A program made the translations under genes and the position numbers. Source: Bacteroidota bacterium (GTDB taxonomy: Bacteria > Bacteroidota > Bacteroidia > Cytophagales > Cyclobacteriaceae). Taken from it: 64,000 bases of DNA. The DNA is taken from positions 2,046 through 66,045 of the forward strand of contig JBCCTI010000031.1 of NCBI GenBank assembly GCA_039198955.1, in the 5' to 3' direction. How positions within the stretch are numbered: position 1 is the first letter of the stretch; each line of letters starts with the position of its first letter. Shown here one piece after another: positions 12,244-36,345 of the stretch. Below the pieces are notes generated by a model. That model made no database searches and was not told the origin of the DNA. It saw only the letters and a program-made list of their open reading frames with translations.

Positions 12244-13554
12244 ATGAAGTATTTCCTTTCTTATTTCGCCGTAACTTTACTTTTCACCGTATCAGCCTAT
12301 AGTCAGGAACTCGGCCGACGGGCTAGTTGGCAAGCTCGAGTCAGTTATCCCGACGGAGGTATTCCCGGAGCAATTATACAAAGTGTAGAACCAGACTCGC
12401 CACTGGAAAAAGCTGGAATGCAATCAGGCGACAAAATCATCCGAGTAAATGGGATATTAGCAAAAGATGCCGAAGCCTGGACAGAAATCACTTACTCATT
12501 ACGAGCCGATACACCTGTTCACATTTTATTCAAGCGAAGAGCAGCAGAAAAATCACTCACCGTGAACCTTGGAGGACGACTGAAGGAAAAATACGTTGGG
12601 TTAGACACCTATTATGAATCAGTACTAAACGATTATGGAGTTCGACAGAGGGTGATTATTACTAAACCCCAACGCGAAGGTAAATTACCTGCCATGCTTT
12701 TCATCGGAGGACTGAGCTGTTCTACGCTGGAGCTTTCGCCTAACTCCACCAGTAATTGGGCAAAAGTAATTAGAGCATTGGTGGAGGAAACGGATATGGT
12801 GGTGATGCGGGTAGAAAAAGTGGGGGTAGGCGATAGCGAAGGGGACTGCTCTCAAACTGATTTCCTTACTGAAATGGCGGGTTACCGGGCTGCTTTGCAA
12901 GCATTGAAGCAAAAACCCTATGTGGATACTACTCAAATCATTATCTACGGGTCTAGTATGGGTAGTGCTATTGCTCCTACCCTAGCCAATGAGTTTAATC
13001 TGAAAGGAGTAATCTCTGATGGCACTTTCTTCAAAACCTGGTATGAGCATATGCTGGAGATTGAACGGCGTATCCGGCAAATGGAGGGTGATTCGGAGGC
13101 AGAGATTGTACGTAAAATGAATACTATCTACATTCCGCTCTACCACGGCATGCTGATTGAGAAGAAAACTTACGCCGAAGTGATCGATAAGTATCCGGCT
13201 TTGGCTGAATATAACTATCATGCTCCAGCTCATATGTACGGTCGCCCGGTGGCCTACTATCATCAACTACAAGATTTTAACCTAGCTAAGGGCTGGGAGG
13301 AACTTAAAGCTCCGGTACGCATTATGCGCGGTACCAACGACTGGATTATGTCCGCCTATGACAACGAGATGATTATGCAGGTACTAGAGGAAACCGGACA
13401 TCAGGATCACGAACTTTACCAATTTCCTGGCTTAGATCACTGGAACAAAATCCACGAAAGACCTAACGATTCTTACTTGGGTAAGCCCGGAAAGTGGAAT
13501 GAGCGAATTAGTGGTATTCTGGTTGAGTGGGCAAAAGAGTTAGTTGCCAAATAG
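12244..13554 (+). CDS. Secreted PDZ-domain alpha/beta hydrolase
   Basis: Signal peptide MKYFLSYFAVTLLFTVSAYS, PDZ (SPLEKAGMQSGDKIIRVNG), nucleophile elbow GSSMG and His in GLDH. Confidence 0.8.
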   Translation: MKYFLSYFAVTLLFTVSAYSQELGRRASWQARVSYPDGGIPGAIIQSVEPDSPLEKAGMQSGDKIIRVNGILAKDAEAWTEITYSLRADTPVHILFKRRAAEKSLTVNLGGRLKEKYVGLDTYYESVLNDYGVRQRVIITKPQREGKLPAMLFIGGLSCSTLELSPNSTSNWAKVIRALVEETDMVVMRVEKVGVGDSEGDCSQTDFLTEMAGYRAALQALKQKPYVDTTQIIIYGSSMGSAIAPTLANEFNLKGVISDGTFFKTWYEHMLEIERRIRQMEGDSEAEIVRKMNTIYIPLYHGMLIEKKTYAEVIDKYPALAEYNYHAPAHMYGRPVAYYHQLQDFNLAKGWEELKAPVRIMRGTNDWIMSAYDNEMIMQVLEETGHQDHELYQFPGLDHWNKIHERPNDSYLGKPGKWNERISGILVEWAKELVAK

Positions 13555-13686
13555 CGACTTGGTATCACTTTCTTGATTCGCGCTGCAAGATTTACACTTA
13601 GGTACCGTTTCTTCTATGTAATAAAAACGAAGTTTTCCCGCACGAAATCATTTTAGCCTTTCTTGAGTTTATAGTATATTCGTATC

Positions 13687-13921
13687 TGGAAATTTACAAG
13701 AAGGTGCAAACGTATGCATCCGTTCTTTTACATACTGAAGATTACCCGCTTGAGTCTAATCTCGTTTTCTAAATCCAACACTTAGACCAATACCGAGCCA
13801 AGTGTGCTACCAAAACCGGGCCTCACCCTAACTTACCCGTTAGGGCACTCTTTAAAAAGGAGTGTTAACAGTGGAGGGTTGCGATGGCGTAACAGCTCAA
13901 ATCCTGTTTATTATGGGATTT
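13687..13921 (+). ncRNA. Candidate structured small RNA, possibly 6S-like
   Basis: Lies in a 380-bp gap between convergent genes. Long-range pairings TTGAG/CTCAA and AACACT/AGTGTT; hairpins CCCTAAC/GTTAGGG, CACTC/GAGTG and terminal AAATCC/GGATTT; near-consensus -7 box TATATTCG just upstream. Ends and strand are estimates. Confidence 0.4.
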
Positions 13922-13937
13922 AGTAAAACCGACAGGC

Positions 13938-14522
13938 TCAAGTTGGGTTTTTTTCTAAAATTTCCTCCCGACCCTCTTCCAATCTTTTAGCTTCTTGCAG
14001 GGCTTCCTTTACCGAAACTCGTTCACCATCTACTTTGGCTACTACAAACGCATCCTGGATGCCCATTTGCTGAATATCTCTCTGAAACGCCAGAGCTTTC
14101 GGCAAGTCCCGAAATTTTCCGAGAGTGTATTGATCTAGCGGCCCGTTATAATCAATGTTCATCTTTACGAGATCTTCCTGATAGTCAGCCAGATCAAAGT
14201 TTTCAAATGCTCCAATCTGTACTTCGTAAAAAACCCCAGTGTAGTAGGGCGAAAGCTCCAGTAGCAAGTCATTTACTCGGTAAAGGCTATCAATCTGTTC
14301 TTTCAGATAATAGTTCTGGGCTTCAGCCCGATCCAACGACTTTTGTACTTGAGGCCAACGGCCAAACAGCGGGGTAAAAAACTCAATAAATATTAAGTAA
14401 CCAACTAACAGAAAAATGAGTCCTCCGCTAAATATCAGTCCTTGTTTGAGTAGTTTATTGTGCTGCTGTACCTGACTTTTCTGCTTACTAACTTGCTGAA
14501 ATTGTTCGGCGAGAGTTTCCAT
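13938..14522 (-). CDS. Single-TM coiled-coil protein with C-terminal SPOR-like domain
   Basis: TM helix, coiled coil, then FYEVQIGAF...YTLGKF...A..F...I..MGIQDAFVVAKVDGERV. Confidence 0.6.
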   Translation of the reverse strand: METLAEQFQQVSKQKSQVQQHNKLLKQGLIFSGGLIFLLVGYLIFIEFFTPLFGRWPQVQKSLDRAEAQNYYLKEQIDSLYRVNDLLLELSPYYTGVFYEVQIGAFENFDLADYQEDLVKMNIDYNGPLDQYTLGKFRDLPKALAFQRDIQQMGIQDAFVVAKVDGERVSVKEALQEAKRLEEGREEILEKNPT

Positions 14523-14612
14523 ATACTAAATTAAACTTTGTGGTTAATTACTGCAATTCGGCAGATTATCGGATAAATTTACGCTTCTATTGGTATTATC
14601 CGAACGGGCAAT

Positions 14613-14620
14613 TATATTTG
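14613..14620 (+). promoter_or_regulatory. -7 element TATATTTG, trp promoter
   Basis: Exact TAnnTTTG immediately upstream of the Trp-rich leader ORF. Confidence 0.65.
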
Positions 14621-14628
14621 CTACTGAA

Positions 14629-14694
14629 ATGGACACTAAATCAATCAATATGTTTACTTTCTGGTGGTGGCGCGTAGAATACTTCTTCGCGTGA
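14629..14694 (+). CDS. trpL: trp operon leader peptide (M)DTKSINMFTFWWWRVEYFFA; ATG 14650 is an alternative start
   Basis: Three consecutive TGG codons at 14662-14670, followed by a terminator and trpE. Confidence 0.85.
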   Translation: MDTKSINMFTFWWWRVEYFFA

Positions 14695-14730
14695 ACCAGA
14701 GGTAATATATTGTCAAAATAATTTTATGAT

Positions 14731-14763
14731 AGCCTACTGTTTACGCAGTGGGCTTTTTTTTTT
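14731..14763 (+). terminator. Attenuator terminator hairpin
   Basis: AGCCTACTG-TTTACG-CAGTGGGCT stem (one G-U pair) followed by a 10-T run; possible antiterminator 14689-14699 pairing with 14737-14746. Confidence 0.85.
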
Positions 14764-14785
14764 ACAAAATCTAACCGACAAGAAT

Positions 14786-16225
14786 ATGAATACTGATCTT
14801 TCTTCCTCCATCTTTCGGCTGACTACCCGTTCCGAGCGATTGCTAGCCGATACAGTCACCCCCGTAAGCATTTACCTAAAAATCCGTGACCGTTACGAGA
14901 ACCCTATTTTACTAGAAAGCTCCGATTACCACAGTAGTGATAATAGTTTTTCGTATATCTGTTGCCAACCGATCGCCTCTTTTTCGGTAAGTCAGCGAAA
15001 AGTAACTCAGGTACTACCAGATGGCAACAAAGAAGAGACTGTAGTGGAAAATCCTCAAGAAATTATCGGAATGCTCACCGAATTTGCCAGCCGATTTCAG
15101 AGCGAAGAGCACGCTTACCGATTTACCACCAATGGTTTATTCGGTTACATGGGCTACGATGCCGTACAGTATTTTGAGGATATTGATCTATCTTCAGACG
15201 AAAAAAGCCAGTATAACATTCCTGAAATTCACTACGCGGTGTACCGTTACGTAATTGCCGTAGACCATTTTCGTAATGAACTGTACGCTTTTGAGCATCA
15301 GCACGAAGGAAATAATAGCGAAGAAAGTGGATTGGCAAACCTGCTGGCACTTATCAATAATAAAAATATTCCTAGCTATCACTTCAAGCGTAGCGAAGCC
15401 GAAAGTAGCAATTACACCGATGAGGAATTTTTAGATATTATTGGCAAGGGACGCGAGCACTGCTTCCGGGGCGACGTTTTTCAGATTGTACTATCGCGCC
15501 GCTTCCAGACTTCTTTCAAGGGTGATGAGTTTAATGTTTATCGAACTTTGCGTTCTATCAATCCTTCACCCTACTTATTTTACTTCGACTACGGTAACTA
15601 CAAGCTGTTCGGCTCATCGCCCGAAGCCCAGATTGTAATTAAGGATGATACCGCCAGCATCTACCCCATTGCCGGAACCTTCCGCCGAACGGGCAACGAT
15701 GAAGCCGATGCCGAACTCGCCCGCAAGCTGATGGACGATCCTAAAGAAAATTCAGAACACGTGATGCTAGTCGATTTAGCCCGCAATGACTTAAGCCGTA
15801 ATGGTGATGATGTAACGGTAGAAACCTTCAAGGAGATTCAGTATTTCTCCCACGTTATCCACCTAGTTTCTAAAGTAACTGGAACCCTGTCGAGCGATAC
15901 TTCGCCCATTCGGGTGGTCGCTGATACTTTTCCCGCCGGAACGCTTTCGGGTGCCCCCAAACATATGGCCATGCAGCTAATCCATCGGTACGAAAGCACT
16001 CAACGAGGCTATTACGGCGGTGCTTTGGGTTTTCTGGGTTTCAACGGAGACTTCAACCATGCGATTATGATTCGCTCATTCTTGAGCCAAGATAACACAT
16101 TGTACTACCAAGCGGGAGCCGGCATTGTCGCTAAATCGGAAGTTGAGAAGGAGTTGCAAGAGGTAAATAATAAGTTAGCGGCTCTTCGAAAGGCATTGGA
16201 ACTAGCTGAATCAATTGCAAATTGA
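14786..16225 (+). CDS. trpE: Anthranilate synthase component I
   Basis: LLADTVTPV, LLESS, GDVFQIVLSRRF, NPSPY, PIAGT, EHVMLVDLARNDL, FPAGTLSGAPK and QAGAGIV. Confidence 0.95.
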   Translation: MNTDLSSSIFRLTTRSERLLADTVTPVSIYLKIRDRYENPILLESSDYHSSDNSFSYICCQPIASFSVSQRKVTQVLPDGNKEETVVENPQEIIGMLTEFASRFQSEEHAYRFTTNGLFGYMGYDAVQYFEDIDLSSDEKSQYNIPEIHYAVYRYVIAVDHFRNELYAFEHQHEGNNSEESGLANLLALINNKNIPSYHFKRSEAESSNYTDEEFLDIIGKGREHCFRGDVFQIVLSRRFQTSFKGDEFNVYRTLRSINPSPYLFYFDYGNYKLFGSSPEAQIVIKDDTASIYPIAGTFRRTGNDEADAELARKLMDDPKENSEHVMLVDLARNDLSRNGDDVTVETFKEIQYFSHVIHLVSKVTGTLSSDTSPIRVVADTFPAGTLSGAPKHMAMQLIHRYESTQRGYYGGALGFLGFNGDFNHAIMIRSFLSQDNTLYYQAGAGIVAKSEVEKELQEVNNKLAALRKALELAESIAN

Positions 16226-16673
16226 AAGATTACAAATTGCAGATTGAAAAATTGTAAGATTACAAATCGTTAAGGATGGCGAAGAAAATTGAGCAGTTTG
16301 AAGACTTACCGATCTGGCAGCAAGCGGTTGATATTGCTTCTGAAGTATATCTGCTAAGTAATCAAGACGAATGGAAGTATTCTTTTGGTATTAAAGACCA
16401 GATACAACGATCGGCATTGTCTATCTCCAGTAATATCGCTGAAGGTTTTGAGTATGACAATACCAAAGATTTTATCCGTTTTCTCCGGTACGCTAAAGGC
16501 TCAGCCGGAGAGCTACGCAGTCAACTATATATTCTTTATCGCTCAGAGATAGTCCAGCGGGCTGAATACGAAGCCCTACACACTAAACTTCTGGAAATGT
16601 CCCGTCAACTATCCGCTTTTATGAAATACCTGAAGTCACGCACCCAATAATTTGCAATTTTCCAATCTACAAT
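16214..16673 (+). mobile_element. Inverted-repeat-flanked four-helix-bundle cassette between trpE and trpG (mobility inferred)
   Basis: Arm 16236-16257 matches the reverse complement of 16652-16673 at 19 of 22 nt; both arms are built of ATTxxAA-type heptamers. Confidence 0.55.
16276..16650 (+). CDS. Four-helix-bundle protein (23S rRNA IVS-protein family)
   Basis: FEDLPIWQQA, KDQIQRSALSISSNIAEGF and FLRYAKGSAGELRSQL. Confidence 0.9.
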   Translation: MAKKIEQFEDLPIWQQAVDIASEVYLLSNQDEWKYSFGIKDQIQRSALSISSNIAEGFEYDNTKDFIRFLRYAKGSAGELRSQLYILYRSEIVQRAEYEALHTKLLEMSRQLSAFMKYLKSRTQ

Positions 16674-16678
16674 CAACC

Positions 16679-17251
16679 ATGAAAATACTAGTACTAGATA
16701 ATTACGATTCATTTACCTACAACTTGGTCCATATTCTGCGAGAGTTGGGAGTGGGTGAACAGATGGATATTATTCGCAACGATAAGATTTCAGTAGAGGA
16801 AGTAGATCGCTACGATAAAATTTTGCTTTCCCCCGGACCGGGTATTCCGTCTGAGGCAGGCATTATGATGGATGTAATCAAAACCTATGCTCCGAGTAAA
16901 AGTATTTTAGGTATTTGTCTCGGACATCAGGGAATTGCCGAAGCCTTTGAGGCCGATTTGTACAACATGCCATTGGTACTGCACGGTTACGGCGACAAGG
17001 TTTTTATTGAAGATGACAAAGAGTACCTGTTTGACGGAATTCCTACATCATTTAATGTGTGCCGTTACCATAGCTGGGCGGTGGTAGCTGATTCTATGAA
17101 TGAAAATCTGGTGGTAACTGCCCGGGACATTAAGGGAGAGATTATGGGACTTCGTCATCGGCAGTATGATGTAAAAGGGCTACAGTTTCATCCTGAATCC
17201 ATCTTAACCGAACATGGGAAGGAGATGATTAAGAATTGGTTAGGACGCTGA
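16679..17251 (+). CDS. trpG: Anthranilate synthase component II (glutamine amidotransferase)
   Basis: MKILVLDNYDSFTYN, SPGPG, GICLGHQ, RYHS and QFHPES. Confidence 0.95.
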   Translation: MKILVLDNYDSFTYNLVHILRELGVGEQMDIIRNDKISVEEVDRYDKILLSPGPGIPSEAGIMMDVIKTYAPSKSILGICLGHQGIAEAFEADLYNMPLVLHGYGDKVFIEDDKEYLFDGIPTSFNVCRYHSWAVVADSMNENLVVTARDIKGEIMGLRHRQYDVKGLQFHPESILTEHGKEMIKNWLGR

Positions 17252-17280
17252 TTGCTGAAAGCTGAAATTAATGAGGTGCG

Positions 17281-17661
17281 ATGAATAACAAGAAGCATTT
17301 ACAACTAAATGATATTGATGCCTATAAAGCTGCTTTTAGCTTGAGTAATAAGGTATGGAGCATCATAACACGGTGGGATCATTTTAGTAAAAATACTGTA
17401 GGCATTCAGTTTGTCCGCTCAGTAGATTCAGTATCCGCGAATTTAGCGGAGGGATTTGGACGCTACGGGAAGAAAGATAAAATTAAATTCTGTCGCTATG
17501 CTTTAGCCTCAGCGTACGAATCCCTAGATTGGAATGAAAAGTCTAAAGCAAGATGCTTAATTACAACAGATATATACGAAGTGAATTTCCTAGAGCTGCA
17601 AAAATTACCTAAAGCCATAAACGCTTTAATAAAATTCACCAACAGCCATTTGACCATTTAA
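17281..17661 (+). CDS. Four-helix-bundle protein (23S rRNA IVS-protein family), second copy
   Basis: QFVRSVDSVSANLAEGFGRY...KIKFCRYALASAYESLDW; flanked by short tandem repeats. Confidence 0.88.
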   Translation: MNNKKHLQLNDIDAYKAAFSLSNKVWSIITRWDHFSKNTVGIQFVRSVDSVSANLAEGFGRYGKKDKIKFCRYALASAYESLDWNEKSKARCLITTDIYEVNFLELQKLPKAINALIKFTNSHLTI

Positions 17662-17682
17662 CAATTCTAGCCATTTCGAAAA

Positions 17683-18684
17683 ATGAAATCCATCCTTAAC
17701 AATCTCATTGAATATAAATCTTTAGACAAACAAGCAGCTAAAGAGATCTTAGTCCGTTTAGCCCAAGGCGAATTCAACCAAAGCCAGATGGCGGCCTTTC
17801 TCACTGTATTTCTAATGCGGAGCATTACCGTAGAAGAACTGGAAGGCTTCCAAGAAGCAATGCTGGAGCTTTGTGTTCCTTTAAACATCGCTGAGTACGA
17901 TGCCATTGACCTCTGTGGTACAGGGGGCGACGGAAAAAACACCTTCAATATTTCTACTACGGCTTCTTTTGTAGTAGCGGGAGCGGGACAAAACGTAGCC
18001 AAACACGGTAACAACGGAGTATCATCGGTTTGTGGGTCGTCCAATCTACTAGCTCATTTTGGCTATAAGTTTACCAATGATACTAATATCCTGAAGCAAA
18101 GCTTAGATCAAGCCGGCATCTGTTTTTTGCACGCCCCGCTATTTCATCCGGCTATGAAGAATGTGGCTCCGGTACGCCGTGAGCTAGGGATGAAAACCTT
18201 TTTCAATATGCTCGGCCCGATGGTAAACCCTTCATTTCCGAAGAAACAACTGGTGGGGGTTTTTAATCTGGAGCTCGCTCGTTTGTATGCCTACCTTTTT
18301 CAGAAAAGTGATAAGCAATTTGTCATTCTTCACTCACTGGATGGCTACGACGAAATCTCACTCACGGGTCCGTTCCGCATGATTACTAACGAAGGCGAAT
18401 ACCTGCTGCGCCCTGAGGACCTAGGATTTCAAACCCATCGCTCAGAAGACCTATACGGTGGGGCAACGGTGGAGGATTCAGCTCAGATATTTCTGAATAT
18501 CTTAAATGGAAAGGGGACTCTGGCTCAGCGAGAAGCAGTTATAGCCAACGCGGGTATGGCCATTCATTGCGGTAACCCTTCGCTTACTTTGGAAGAAAGT
18601 ATCCAGCGCGCCCAGACTTCATTAGAATCAGGTAAAGCTCAGCAAACCTTCCAACGGTTAGTGGGTAATCATGCTTCAGCCTAA
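17683..18684 (+). CDS. trpD: Anthranilate phosphoribosyltransferase
   Basis: DLCGTGGDG, FNIST, KHGN, FLHAPLFHPAMK, TFFNMLGP and DGYDE. Confidence 0.95.
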   Translation: MKSILNNLIEYKSLDKQAAKEILVRLAQGEFNQSQMAAFLTVFLMRSITVEELEGFQEAMLELCVPLNIAEYDAIDLCGTGGDGKNTFNISTTASFVVAGAGQNVAKHGNNGVSSVCGSSNLLAHFGYKFTNDTNILKQSLDQAGICFLHAPLFHPAMKNVAPVRRELGMKTFFNMLGPMVNPSFPKKQLVGVFNLELARLYAYLFQKSDKQFVILHSLDGYDEISLTGPFRMITNEGEYLLRPEDLGFQTHRSEDLYGGATVEDSAQIFLNILNGKGTLAQREAVIANAGMAIHCGNPSLTLEESIQRAQTSLESGKAQQTFQRLVGNHASA

Positions 18685-19355
18685 TGTTATACTGGCTTAC
18701 CAATGAGTTAGTATTTCCTCCGGTAGAGCTTGCCGAGGATTGGGGTGGTCTAGCTTTAGGCGGTGACCTTTCCCCCGAACGTCTGCTACTGGCCTACCAA
18801 TCCGGAATATTTCCCTGGTACGAAGATGGTCAACCCATAATTTGGCACGCGCCTGATCCTCGCTTTGTATTATTCCCGCATAAGCTACATATTCCCCGCA
18901 GTCTGCGTCCCTTGCTTAATCAGAAGAAGTTTACAATTACCTACGACACCGCTTTCCGAAAAGTCATTCGGCAGTGCCAGCGGGTGAAACGTCCCGACCA
19001 GCCCGGTACCTGGATTACTGAAGAAATGCTGGAAGCTTACTGTAAGCTACACGAATTAGGTTACGCCCATTCAGTAGAAGCCTGGCAGCAGGATAAGCTC
19101 GTCGGCGGTCTGTACGGCATCTCCTTAGGCAAAGTATTTTTTGGTGAGTCTATGTTTTCCCTCGTCAACAATGCTTCAAAGGCAGCCTTTGTCACGCACG
19201 TTTTAGATTTGGCTAAGCAGGATTTCTTACTTGTTGACTGCCAGGTAGCTACTCCGCATCTACAACGCTTCGGGGCTGAAGACATTCCTCGCTCCCAATA
19301 CATGCAGTTACTTTACACTGCACTCCAGCCAAATGCATCTCATAACCGAGGCTAG
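18684..19355 (+). CDS. aat: Leucyl/phenylalanyl-tRNA-protein transferase
   Basis: GGDLSPERLLLAYQSGIFPW, TWIT, AHSVEAW, GGLYG, FFGESMF and ASK; TAATG overlap with trpD. Confidence 0.93.
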   Translation: MLYWLTNELVFPPVELAEDWGGLALGGDLSPERLLLAYQSGIFPWYEDGQPIIWHAPDPRFVLFPHKLHIPRSLRPLLNQKKFTITYDTAFRKVIRQCQRVKRPDQPGTWITEEMLEAYCKLHELGYAHSVEAWQQDKLVGGLYGISLGKVFFGESMFSLVNNASKAAFVTHVLDLAKQDFLLVDCQVATPHLQRFGAEDIPRSQYMQLLYTALQPNASHNRG

Positions 19356-19560
19356 CCTCATCAGAAACACCCTTTAAATACCGATTTTATTCGCATTTCC
19401 CCTTTCAAACTTACCTAAGGGAGGACTGACTAGCTTGCTATTAGCGCCAATTTGGGGATAAACATTACCTGCGACAGCTTTTGCCTAAAACCTACCGCGA
19501 ATACCAGTACTTACTTCGTAGATTTATTATTCTTTAATATGATGATAGTTTAATTTTTAC

Positions 19561-33168: not shown

Positions 33169-35835
33169 TTACTCTGATCGTAGATTATCGGCAGGATTAA
33201 CCAGTGCCGCTCGAATGGATTGATAGCTGACGGTAAGCACCGCGATTGTAATAGCTATTAAACCGGCTAAAGCAAATACATCCCACTCAATGGGTATGCG
33301 GTATTCATAATCTTCTAACCAGGTCTGCATGAAATACCAGGCAATAGGAATGGCGATTACCAGCGATATCAAAATGAGTATTAGGTAGTTTTGGGTGAGT
33401 AGGCGGAAGATTTGTCCGAAAGACGCTCCTAAGACTAGCCGGATGCTAACTTCTTTTCGACGTTGTTCCGCCATGAAGGCCGACAGAGCGAATAGGCCAA
33501 GGCAAGCAATGACAATCGCCAGGATAGCAAAACTGGTAAAAATTCGCCCCATGCGTTTTACATCGGCGTACATCATGGCAAAACTCTCATCCAGAAAGGT
33601 GTAACGAATACCTTGGTTAGGAGAAAAACGATCCCACACCGCCGTTACGGCTTCTATTGTTTCTGGCATATCAGCGGTATTAACCTTCACTGATACCACC
33701 GAAGGGCTGTTGCCTAATACCAGGCAGAGTGGGCGAATTTTTTCTTTTAGCGATTGATAATTGAAATCCTGCACCACTCCGATAATCTGCCAGACATCGC
33801 CGCGGTTGGTAATTCGCTCGCCGATGGGATTATCCAACCCCAATTCCTGCGCCATTCGCTGGTTAATGATTACTGCCTGAGAGTCACTAGCCATCTCAAT
33901 ATTGAAGTTTCGCCCTTCCACAATGTTCATACCTATTGTCTGCAGGTAGTCTTCATCCGTACGCCATATCTGGGTTCCTACTCCTACGTCCTCATTTACT
34001 TTTCCCTCTTTCCAAAAAGAATTCTGATTTCTCTTCGTACCAGCAATGGGTAAGTAGTCGCTAACGGATACTTGTTTTACATCTGATAATTGCTGCAACT
34101 CGCTTTTAAAAGCAGGTAGCTGGTTCTCTAAAGTATTAGCACCCTGAAGCAGTATTACCTGTTCTTTATCAAAGCCCACATCTTTAGTGAGGATAAACTG
34201 CATCTGTTGGTAGACGATAGCAGTACTAATAATTAATATGATGGAGGTAGCAAACTGAAAAATAACCAGAGCGCTACGGAGCTTAGAGCTTTTACTACCT
34301 CGAGTCACTTCTCCCTTTAGTACCTGGGCAGGTTTAAAGCGGGAAAGATACACTGAGGGATAAAGCCCGGCTAGAATGCCAATAACTACGGCTAGTGCTA
34401 CTAACACCGGTAAAAACCACCACGCCTGCCAAGGGAAAGTTAAGGTTTTGGCTGATAAATCGTTGAAGTATGGCAGCAGTAAGAATGCTAACAATATCGC
34501 TAAGACAAATGACAAAAAGCTAATTAATAGCGACTCGGTTAGAAACTGATGAACTAGTTGACGGCGAGCCGAACCAATCGCTTTTCGTAGTCCTACTTCC
34601 TTGGCGCGATTGGCCGACTTAGCGGTAAAAAGATTGACAAAGTTAATCCCGGCAATGAGCAAAATAAAGCCCGCAACTGCACCGAATAGCCAGACAAAGC
34701 GTATATCACCGTGATTAAGGCGATCTCTAATACCGTTTGAGTATAAATGGATATCACTGATAGGTTGTAACTCTACGCTTAGGTTTGAGGCAAACGCTTC
34801 AGCATTCACCATACCTCCTTCTTGGAAGCTGGGCAAGAAATAGTTTTGAATGATCCCCTTCGTCAGCTTGGCTTCCAATGCATCAGCCTCGGTTCCAGGC
34901 TGAACCCTAATATAAGTATGGTAGTTGCTCGATCCCCAAGAGGTTTGTTCACCCTCCCAAAATTCCCGACCAGTCATTGTAATTAGAAAATCATATTGAA
35001 AATGAGAGGTGGCCGGAAAATCTTCAAAGACTCCGCCTACTTTGTAGAGCTGACTTTCATCGTTACCAAGTACTAGCGTCTGGCCTAAAGGATTTTCATC
35101 AGGAAATAATTTATTGGCTTGGCTCTGAGAAATGGCGATAGTATTAGGCTCCGCTAAGGCTCTTGGTAGTTCGCCCTGAACAAAGTTGGGCCGGAGTATC
35201 TCTAGCAACTCCTGATCGGCGTAGACAAAACCTTCTTCGTAGATATTCTCAGCCTGATCCGCCCGACGCACTTCTCTACCACCAGCACCAAATAATTCGC
35301 TGGCGTTTATCCTGCCCGAGGCTTCAATTTCTGGAAAGTCGTCTTTTAGTACACTAGCCATTGGGGGTGGAAAATGTATTCCTTTTCGAATCTCCCCCTG
35401 ATCGTTGAATACACCAACTACTCGGTAAATACAATCACCATCCGAATAGTGCTGATCGTAGCTAAGTTCATGCTGAATAAATAAGGTAATTAACAAACAG
35501 GCCGTAATGCCCAGGGCAAGCCCGCCAATCTTAATCAAAGAGTAAGTTTTCTGCTTCCTCAGGTTTCTCCAGCCAATTTTAACATAGCTTTGGTACATAG
35601 CACGATGGGTTAAGTTGTAAAATGTTGTTAGATTACGGATAGCAAATGGTCGTAGATAGTGAAATACCTGATACCAATAATTGCGCTTAGCTTGACCTAA
35701 CGAGTGTTCTTCCAGCGTTTGGTAGAACTTCTCTTCTAAATCCCCTTCTACTTCTTCGGCTAGTTCGCCCCGAAGGAACCAGCGGAGAAAGCGTTGAGCG
35801 AGTTTGGGTGGTACATTGTCAGGATCAGGATTCAC
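33169..35835 (-). CDS. MacB/FtsX-family ABC permease with permease-prefix domain
   Basis: NFVNLFTAKSANRAKEVGLRK and NPADNLRSE; GTG start, internal ATG at 35598. Confidence 0.9.
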   Translation of the reverse strand: MNPDPDNVPPKLAQRFLRWFLRGELAEEVEGDLEEKFYQTLEEHSLGQAKRNYWYQVFHYLRPFAIRNLTTFYNLTHRAMYQSYVKIGWRNLRKQKTYSLIKIGGLALGITACLLITLFIQHELSYDQHYSDGDCIYRVVGVFNDQGEIRKGIHFPPPMASVLKDDFPEIEASGRINASELFGAGGREVRRADQAENIYEEGFVYADQELLEILRPNFVQGELPRALAEPNTIAISQSQANKLFPDENPLGQTLVLGNDESQLYKVGGVFEDFPATSHFQYDFLITMTGREFWEGEQTSWGSSNYHTYIRVQPGTEADALEAKLTKGIIQNYFLPSFQEGGMVNAEAFASNLSVELQPISDIHLYSNGIRDRLNHGDIRFVWLFGAVAGFILLIAGINFVNLFTAKSANRAKEVGLRKAIGSARRQLVHQFLTESLLISFLSFVLAILLAFLLLPYFNDLSAKTLTFPWQAWWFLPVLVALAVVIGILAGLYPSVYLSRFKPAQVLKGEVTRGSKSSKLRSALVIFQFATSIILIISTAIVYQQMQFILTKDVGFDKEQVILLQGANTLENQLPAFKSELQQLSDVKQVSVSDYLPIAGTKRNQNSFWKEGKVNEDVGVGTQIWRTDEDYLQTIGMNIVEGRNFNIEMASDSQAVIINQRMAQELGLDNPIGERITNRGDVWQIIGVVQDFNYQSLKEKIRPLCLVLGNSPSVVSVKVNTADMPETIEAVTAVWDRFSPNQGIRYTFLDESFAMMYADVKRMGRIFTSFAILAIVIACLGLFALSAFMAEQRRKEVSIRLVLGASFGQIFRLLTQNYLILILISLVIAIPIAWYFMQTWLEDYEYRIPIEWDVFALAGLIAITIAVLTVSYQSIRAALVNPADNLRSE

Positions 35836-36330
35836 TGGATGATAAGATTATCAGGATTTTACTTTCTGAATGATTAACTTTTTGCTTTATGTTCTTTACT
35901 GAATAGACGCTTAACCTCGAGGCTCCGCGCCCCAAAATTGATGAGTAATCCTTTATCTATCTTATAAGCTTGTAGATAATTAAGTCCTTGTGCTAGATGA
36001 GCGTCTTCCAGCTGGATGACTGCCTTTAGCTCCACGATTACTTGGTTTTCTACTATAAAGTCAGCCCTTCTAGTACCTACCTGTATATCTTCGTAATAAA
36101 TAGGCATTTCCAACTCCCGCGCAAATCCTAACCCTTGCTTCTCCATTTCAATCGCTAAACACCGTTGGTAAATCACTTCTTGAAACCCGTTGCCCAAAGT
36201 ACTATGAACTTTCGTAGCACACCCGATAATCTTATATGTCAAAGGATCGTTAATATCTTCTTTCATCTTCCAAATTTTTTTAATCGCTAGGTTATAATCC
36301 TGCTAATCCCACCATCCCGTGAATCCTGAT
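35824..36330 (-). mobile_element. GxxExxY cassette bounded by 38-bp imperfect inverted repeats (mobility inferred)
   Basis: 35824-35861 vs the reverse complement of 36293-36330: 32 of 38 identical. Confidence 0.6.
35874..36266 (-). CDS. GxxExxY protein (PD-(D/E)XK nuclease fold)
   Basis: IIGCA..VH..LGNGFQEVIY, RADFIVE...IVELKA, AQ.LNYL and GLLINFG. Confidence 0.92.
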   Translation of the reverse strand: MKEDINDPLTYKIIGCATKVHSTLGNGFQEVIYQRCLAIEMEKQGLGFARELEMPIYYEDIQVGTRRADFIVENQVIVELKAVIQLEDAHLAQGLNYLQAYKIDKGLLINFGARSLEVKRLFSKEHKAKS

Positions 36331-36345
36331 ACTGACATTATAATC

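Follow-up and report, generated by a model that had tools for sequence, protein, structure and literature searches.

A four-helix-bundle gene between inverted heptamer arrays at the trpE-trpG junction, a probable operon counterpart of ORF-bearing rRNA intervening sequences

Why should a gene of the protein family named after 23S rRNA intervening sequences (IVSs) stand within a tryptophan operon, enclosed by two repeat arrays that are complementary to one another? The locus lies in a 64,000-nt stretch of contig JBCCTI010000031.1 (assembly GCA_039198955.1; 'the window' denotes this whole stretch), part of a 7.0-Mb metagenome-assembled genome (G000, 'own' in the comparisons below) whose nearest relatives in public databases carry the labels Flammeovirgaceae or Roseivirgaceae (Cytophagales). 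Its order is trpE, a 124-residue open reading frame (ORF; gene A), trpG, a 126-residue ORF (gene B) and trpD, as given by the ORF listing, with the three trp genes confirmed by Pfam. An earlier note on the window had proposed that gene A and its flanks are an mRNA-level equivalent of an rRNA IVS. We find that they form a cassette in which a single PF05635 gene is enclosed by two inverted arrays of RTTNNAR, a 7/8-nt unit specific to the subfamily, and on balance we favour the view that this hairpin-armed four-helix-bundle (4HB) cassette is the operon counterpart of ORF-bearing 23S rRNA IVSs, long resident at the junction, co-transcribed with the trp genes, its arrays maintained as arrays, in what would originally have been a trpE-trpG spacer of near zero. 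Its parts are these.

16214-16267, + strand: left array, found by Tandem Repeats Finder (TRF) and as direct repeats in the repeat search, 7/8-nt units ATTGCAA ATTGAAAG ATTACAA ATTGCAG ATTGAAAA ATTGTAAG ATTACAA
16236-16257, + strand: left arm of the closing stem, ATTGCAGATTGAAAAATTGTAA, from the repeat search; alternative register 16214-16238
16276-16650, + strand: 4HB gene A, 124 residues, PF05635/TIGR02436, from profile hidden Markov models (HMMs) and an AF2 model
16649-16673, + strand: right arm, with TTGCAATTTTCCAATCTACAAT at 16652-16673, reverse complement of the left units, overlapping the gene A stop

The earlier note had called gene A an IVS-type four-helix bundle, and profile HMMs and fold agree. 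The protein matches PF05635 (23S_rRNA_IVP; 2e-31, 108.8 bits, cut-off 33.8) and TIGR02436 ('four helix bundle protein'; 4.3e-32, 110.6 bits, cut-off 24), and its AF2 model (39 relatives in the alignment; pLDDT 94, pTM 0.87) consists of four helices, residues 12-28, 37-59, 63-89 and 95-123. The best Foldseek matches in the PDB are Xcc0516 (2GSC; also matched by phmmer, 6.4e-12) and BT_0352 (2RLD), with TM scores of 0.75-0.84 on the query and 0.81-0.90 on the target, and each of these entries holds five chains; next come Avd (4DWL; TM 0.72-0.75 on the query, 0.80-0.84 on the target) and then Avd in the ribonucleoprotein of a diversity-generating retroelement (DGR; 8UB7). Four residues of the family motif GxxRxxxSxxxNxxE (PMC3936711) are present as R45, S49, N53 and E56; across the 39 relatives N53 and E56 never vary and S49 hardly does, while the leading G is replaced by Q42 in the subfamily of protein A. 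Among orthologs the dN/dS of the gene is 0.05-0.12 (pairs without saturated synonymous sites), which shows that purifying selection keeps the protein.

The left array has a TRF period of 15, i.e. one 7-nt and one 8-nt unit (3.6 copies, score 60), and it does begin within the last codons of trpE, as the earlier note had it: the trpE stop TGA (16223-16225) falls inside the array, and the final codons (..SIAN-TGA) are themselves made of array sequence. At the other side only five nucleotides (CAACC) separate the end of the right arm at 16673 from the trpG ATG at 16679. The two 22-nt arms are complementary at 19 positions, and the differences are C·A, A·C and U·G, one of which is a wobble pair; these distances and counts, too, are those first claimed. 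The repeat search returns this pairing (22 nt at 86%) and a second register, 16214-16238 with 16649-16673 (25 nt at 80%), and the closing stem is found in both the minimum free energy (MFE) and the centroid folds of 16200-16690. To judge the match we used a flank score, the local alignment of the upstream flank with the reverse complement of the downstream flank, controlled with 3000 random placements of the same geometry in this genome and with 887 other small ORFs, at a cut-off of 29. Gene A scores 33, and the random placements average 14.7 with a maximum of 31 (0/3000 as high), so the arm match at gene A is not due to chance. RNAduplex z-scores on 130-150-nt flanks were uninformative, being dominated by long spurious duplexes, and local alignment with genome-wide controls was used instead.

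The cassette is co-directional with the trp genes and lies downstream of a Trp-codon attenuator. The other features of the operon are as follows.

14650-14694, + strand: trp leader peptide MFTFWWWRVEYFFA, three tandem Trp codons (WWW), read from the sequence
14731-14764, + strand: intrinsic terminator of the attenuator, a hairpin with a 10-bp stem (14731-14754) and then a T-run, from a terminator scan
14786-16225, + strand: trpE (anthranilate synthase I), Pfam Chorismate_bind 4.6e-77 and Anth_synt_I_N
16679-17251, + strand: trpG (glutamine amidotransferase subunit), Pfam GATase 1.3e-47, start fixed by homolog alignment
17252-17280, + strand: degenerate left units of cassette B (TTGCTGA AAGCTGA AATTAAT), from a reading of the sequence
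17281-17661, + strand: 4HB gene B, 126 residues, PF05635 3.7e-19, TIGR02436 2.3e-20
17683-18684, + strand: trpD (anthranilate phosphoribosyltransferase), Pfam Glycos_transf_3 2.4e-72

That the operon is attenuated, another point of the earlier note, follows from the leader peptide together with the intrinsic terminator; the Rfam Trp_leader model matches weakly at 14657-14761, overlapping the leader peptide (27.4 bits, gathering score 41), and Bacteroid-trp gives no match at the leader (14650-14764). The true trpE start is probably ATG 14786, since an ORF extended upstream to 14726 would take in the terminator. The attenuator hairpin is the only terminator-like site in 14400-19500, and the region from trpE to trpD is free of them, as would be expected if the cassette is transcribed together with the operon. 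A scan with the sigma-70 consensus, which is the wrong one for Bacteroidota, gave 12 hits and no excess over shuffles (9.3). The cassette would travel within the trp mRNA, where its two arrays could pair and loop out the 4HB ORF, so that the trpE stop would come to lie beside the trpG start. Such pairing may keep the insertion cheap for the host while the gene rides on a housekeeping operon, and the stem would then either be a substrate of RNase III, as in rRNA, or be bound by the 4HB protein.

How long has the cassette been there? We compared the trpE-trpG-trpD region in 30 related genomes. Adjacent trpE and trpG lacking the insert, which the earlier note had suggested looking for in close relatives, do occur: most other genera, and G007 as well, have gaps of -1 to 36 nt there. 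Orthologs of gene A occupy the gap in G001 and G015 (77-92% identical to A), in G004, G005 and G010 (60-64%), in Splendidivirga (58%) and in G020 (49%). G013 has a frameshifted 4HB gene together with a methyltransferase-like gene, which stands alone in the gap of five species and persists as a 132-nt remnant in G002, and the gap of G003 contains a 126-nt array-like remnant. We had considered this last spacer as a hairpin of arms alone and rejected it (fold z -0.08 against shuffles), leaving the array-like remnant only. The methyltransferase-like guest of the congener trpE-trpG junctions (L013, L018, L019, L024, L026) is a Methyltransf_11-like gene of 200-230 residues, seen also in pseudogene and remnant stages. 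In G013 it ends in ..SVIAN-stop, and the resemblance of this ending to the ..TIAN-stop of TrpE suggests that its stop codon was derived from an array unit. A further side observation concerns the conserved TrpE C-terminus ..AEKI-stop (GAGAAGATT), present also at empty sites (L029, L032, L036), which is similar to GAAGATT, the unit of the arrays next to it at filled sites (L074-L113); the likeness could be insertion-site microhomology or coincidence.

Beyond these genomes we took the best 80 relatives of protein A, one genome per species, of which 77 were analysable. No fewer than 26 of these 77 sit between trpE and trpG, all in operon orientation, in hosts of several Cytophagales lineages (Ohtaekwangia, Chryseolinea, Algoriphagus, Rhodonellum, Catalinimonas, Splendidivirga and others). 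In the 4HB tree the trp-located copies cluster (6 changes, as against 24 in shuffles), the starred branches force one change only, and a single clade of trp-located copies is not rejected by the approximately unbiased (AU) test (p=0.144). Distances of the cassette co-vary with those of TrpE+TrpG (Mantel Spearman rho 0.40, reached by 0/2000 permutations). Occupancy, tree clustering, co-variation and the low dN/dS together show that the cassette is an old, mostly vertically inherited and selected resident of the trpE-trpG junction, one in place since before several Cytophagales lineages split, with losses, decay and cargo additions later. The earlier note had named vertical conservation of the insert at this site as a point that would tell against it; such conservation largely holds across several families, and it counts against recent insertion and not against a looped-out RNA.

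Within the genus the history is less smooth. The own genome and G015 differ from G004 and G005 by 40% in the 4HB protein and by 3-4% in TrpE, a ratio of 5.3-6.4 where the median is 1.55, which makes these pairs the largest outliers. Their arms differ too (ATTGCAGATTG in one pair, GTTGCAGGTTT in the other), and the maximum likelihood (ML) tree joins G004/G005 with G010 (support 94); the AU test does not reject the vertical grouping of own/G015 with G004/G005 (p=0.51). Probably the cassette was swapped, or went through a burst of change, inside this genus. Outside the trp operon the A subfamily is found at 25 or more other junction types, e.g. paaA|paaB/paaC, FAA hydrolase|flavin reductase and CoxM|CoxS, and 61 of the 67 relatives with both neighbours identified are co-directional with both. 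Rfam places no rRNA gene at or next to any of the 40 nearest non-trp relatives; it has no match to these 40 loci, to the cassette itself or to the nine further paralog loci.

What has been conserved along with the gene? The layout is constant in 25 orthologous loci, with a left array that begins at or over the trpE stop; the right array opens at or just downstream of the 4HB stop and closes a little short of the trpG ATG. The unit RTTNNAR, 7 or 8 nt long, is common to the whole A subfamily, whose arrays are of the ATTGCAGATTGAAAA type. In 23 of 27 loci arrays on both sides exceed the random 99th percentile despite saturated synonymous sites, and polarity is fixed, the left arm having 4% C and the right arm 4% G; this persistence and polarity speak against pure neutrality. 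A search for compensatory evolution of the arms was negative beyond the modest own-locus advantage given below, and the close pair G004 and G005 share one right-arm core, yet their left arms differ at several positions and nothing on the right answers those changes. What is retained of the arms is a pair of inverted arrays with a common unit type; a helix kept up by compensation is not seen.

A second 4HB gene stands in the same operon. Gene B, ~25-30% identical to gene A, fills the trpG-trpD gap in G000, G012 and G013; many relatives have there an ABM-like gene instead, and elsewhere the gap is nearly empty. The ABM-like guest is a monooxygenase-type gene of ~105 residues (congener gaps L016, L017, L019-L024). 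Arms of the B type are long in other genomes, with TTGCTGG x12 upstream in G013 and, in the opposite orientation, CAGCAAT x8 downstream in G012 (trpG-trpD gaps L018 and L013), and amount here to two degenerate units; the arrays behave like microsatellites.

The genome as a whole places both cassettes among many relatives. It contains 11 PF05635 matches (37 of 41 related genomes have the family, with 0-15 copies each), and seven of the 11 have flank scores of at least 29; an eighth scores 24, and all eight are significant. The other small ORFs reach the cut-off in 8 of 887 cases (0.9%), and these eight include two 4HB genes and three genes of other families, namely PDDEXK_3/GxxExxY, GIY-YIG and a Y1 transposase of the RAYT type (associated with repetitive extragenic palindromic, REP, sequences). 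The repeat unit differs for each 4HB copy (GTGAAAT, ATTGACA, GTCGACA, TAGAGGT, GGGTGAA and others). Like gene A, the paralogs stand at co-directional junctions, which we take to be, for example, cysD|cysN and ftsI|murE, the neighbours being named by reading ORF sequences and not with profile libraries. Arrays of period 7/8 number 865, with 46 inverted pairs, 40 of them gene-less; one ordinary GTPase gene is also flanked by inverted arrays. Periods divisible by 3 set aside, TRF arrays have by far most often a period of 7 (1066, as compared with 397 of period 5 and 445 of period 8). The commonest gene-less unit, TAATGAn, flanks no 4HB gene here, and CGGAGAC, likewise common, matches no 4HB arms. 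Hairpins of the A-type unit do occur gene-less, at C88:8650-8725, C6:139795-139880, C122 and C93. Arm-type 21-mers recur at 3-58 other loci, against a chance estimate of ~1-2 that is only rough for sequences of such low complexity.

Three side observations belong here. A 17-nt motif, ACGGTCGCCGTGCGATT, or its complement, lies in or beside gene-less A-type hairpins (C122:3020-3100, C93:2723-2842, C32:9560-9660, C37:53085-53163). The window itself holds a PDDEXK_3/GxxExxY-type nuclease-family gene (35874-36266, minus strand; Pfam 2.3e-40), enclosed (35812-36342) by a 50-nt, 82% complementary inverted repeat of CAGGATT-like units; its flank score of 55 is the highest among the small ORFs sampled in the genome, its arm recurs nowhere else, and with it the hairpin layout of the 4HB cassettes has a second cargo family. 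The GIY-YIG gene (C79:6014-6304) and the RAYT-type Y1 transposase gene (C68:16785-17327) also have long flanking inverted repeats (scores 40 and 36), and those pairs are not built from heptamer arrays.

With this material the readings can be weighed. The view that the cassette is a maintained operon counterpart of rRNA IVSs, which we regard as probable, has to bear several contrary observations. The stem is imperfect (19/22, -17.3 kcal/mol), rich in A and T, and has to close a ~400-nt loop; the whole stretch 16200-16690 folds no better than shuffles (z -0.75); and ribosomes translating trpE and the 4HB ORF would melt such a stem. Arms of the same locus match each other only modestly better (mean 31) than arms of different loci (mean 24; random mean 14.7), the cross-match being due to the subfamily-wide unit type. 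Selection for an RNA helix on the transcribed strand would be expected to leave more G·U than A·C mismatches, and in 52 cassettes no such surplus is seen (G·U 51, A·C 47, and 120 of other, transversion-type kinds, many of them disruptive). Four of 27 orthologs keep an intact gene and no detectable complementarity of arms, the right array being 13-20 nt in three of them, and in this genome the arms of cassette B are not significant (flank score 16). The proposal of an mRNA-level IVS equivalent stands as to family, layout of stem and heptamers, and presence of the stem in the fold; the signature expected on the RNA strand is missing, and arms are lost in those four orthologs. In its full form that proposal would have RNase III cleave the arm stem in the trp mRNA, free a 4HB mRNA and split trpE from trpG-trpD, just as an rRNA IVS is excised. 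An RNase III gene (rnc, 104 bits) is present in the genome and a stem of 22-25 nt is predicted in both folds, but with at least three mismatches in 22 nt the stem is weaker than the 28-bp stem of Coxiella, neither the mismatch bias nor the arms of some gene-keeping orthologs are as excision would have them, and we consider excision possible but doubtful. The arrays might instead be putative binding sites, with a 4HB pentamer recognising its own 7/8-nt unit, as DNA or RNA, the gene being partnered with the arrays of that unit throughout the genome as a RAYT gene is with REP, and the inverted pair at the gene serving as an autoregulatory or 'home' copy. This would suit the conservation of unit type and not of exact pairing across the A subfamily, the fixed strand polarity, the different unit at each copy, the scattered 21-mers and gene-less A-unit hairpins, and the likeness to Avd, which is part of a nucleic-acid-containing complex (8UB7). 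Common descent of gene and arms would, however, link unit and subfamily with no binding at all, the chance expectation for the 21-mers is rough, and the commonest gene-less families match no 4HB arms here; we think binding of this kind unlikely, in its autoregulatory form as well. A wider version, in which PF05635 proteins are putative trans-acting partners of array hairpins throughout the genome, one unit per subfamily, strikes us as distinctly unlikely. It would be a REP/RAYT-like system lacking a recognisable catalytic protein, whose gene copies persist at junctions between subunits of the same enzyme (trpE|trpG, cysD|cysN, paaA|paaB, CoxM|CoxS) through paired arms that rejoin upstream stop and downstream start and so preserve coupled expression; if it were true, rRNA IVSs would simply be copies that landed in rRNA.

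Two further explanations have been weighed. Were the cassette a recent DNA-level mobile element, its terminal inverted repeats would be relics of transposition with no present role, and the filled, empty and decayed sites among congeners, the 25 or more junctions of the A subfamily and the divergence of 40% in the 4HB beside 3-4% in TrpE could all be so explained. Against this, the same junction is filled across several families with host and cassette co-diverging, 23 of 27 loci retain arrays on either side in spite of synonymous saturation, and the gene is under purifying selection; there is no transposase, near-identical second copy or clear target duplication, and we rate a recent element as very unlikely. 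Coincidence, a 4HB gene that happens to lie between two of the intergenic heptamer arrays of which the genome is full, might appeal to the 865 arrays, the 46 inverted pairs (40 gene-less) and the flanked GTPase gene. It is hardly credible given matching flanks in seven of 11 4HB genes as against 0.9% of small ORFs, where most of the other positives are GxxExxY, GIY-YIG or RAYT genes, and given the constant layout in 25 orthologous loci. We thus return to the maintained cassette as the reading that on present evidence accounts best for the locus.

The module of gene, stem and heptamers lives in ordinary operons, and the question is no longer one of a 'decaying rRNA parasite' but of a genetic module that is widespread and maintained, one that ties the PF05635 family to the abundant and unexplained intergenic heptamer repeats of bacteria. 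ORF-bearing rRNA IVSs have been known since the 1990s, and to our knowledge the role of their protein and heptamers is unexplained. In the literature 23S_rRNA_IVP genes are reported in rRNA insertions and between cas genes, and the literature that we searched nowhere describes the armed cassette in ordinary operons. This locus contributes the deep conservation at one junction, the purifying selection on the gene, the series of empty, decayed and replaced sites within one genus and the negative strand-bias test. The locus offers a convenient test bed, a well-understood, attenuator-controlled operon with natural empty, decayed and gene-only variants, and cultured carriers exist (Ohtaekwangia, Algoriphagus, Splendidivirga).

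How does the cassette compare with known systems? It is not a recognisable transposon, lacking as it does both a transposase and near-identical copies: the 4HB gene is its only ORF, the other ten PF05635 copies in the genome have different arms, and matches elsewhere in the genome are of the array type only, differing at 2-4 positions of 21-22 nt. Around the arms we see no obvious direct repeat, and the comparison with empty sites is blurred by the overlap of the array with the variable TrpE tail. With the Avd protein of DGRs (4DWL, 8UB7) it shares the four-helix bundle, both being small basic-type helical proteins of folds known to act with nucleic acid; identity is only 13-14%, the neighbours are trpE, trpG and trpD, and, as no reverse transcriptase adjoins it, the cassette is not part of a DGR. 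The REP/RAYT system likewise places one small gene between inverted copies of a short repeat, of which gene-less copies are dispersed through intergenic regions, and a RAYT-like Y1_Tnp gene with inverted repeats in this very genome was scored in the same control; in the cassette, by contrast, the protein has no known catalytic motif and the repeats are tandem 7/8-nt arrays, not single palindromes. The GGGNATC heptamers of Xanthomonas and Nostoc are enriched between co-directional genes, transcribed, and found near stop and start codons (PMC4692102), as are the arrays here in their position between co-directional genes and near stop and start codons; the abstract of that paper names neither an associated gene family nor inverted pairing, and the G-quadruplexes it proposes would be impossible for the AT-rich units of the cassette.

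The closest counterpart is the ORF-bearing 23S rRNA IVS of Coxiella and Leptospira (PMC4990558). That of Coxiella burnetii has a 28-bp stem with one mismatch and one bulge, GACAGAT heptamers and an S23p ORF that the authors suggest is decaying, and RNase III cuts in the stem (PMC4990558). The cassette lies outside any rRNA gene, with no rRNA match by Rfam in 13500-19500 and no 23S gene anywhere in the assembly, and hence is not an IVS in the strict sense. It occupies a protein-coding junction, trpE|trpG, in place of an rRNA helix, its stem is shorter and less perfect (19/22 as against 28 bp), its units mix 7 and 8 nt, its protein is under purifying selection, and excision by RNase III is demonstrated for the Coxiella IVS. 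The two also have much in common: each encodes a protein of the PF05635/S23p family from an ORF in the loop of a terminal-inverted-repeat stem, each has tandem heptamer-type units between stem base and start codon, each is ~430-470 nt in length, and each is placed inside a highly transcribed unit.

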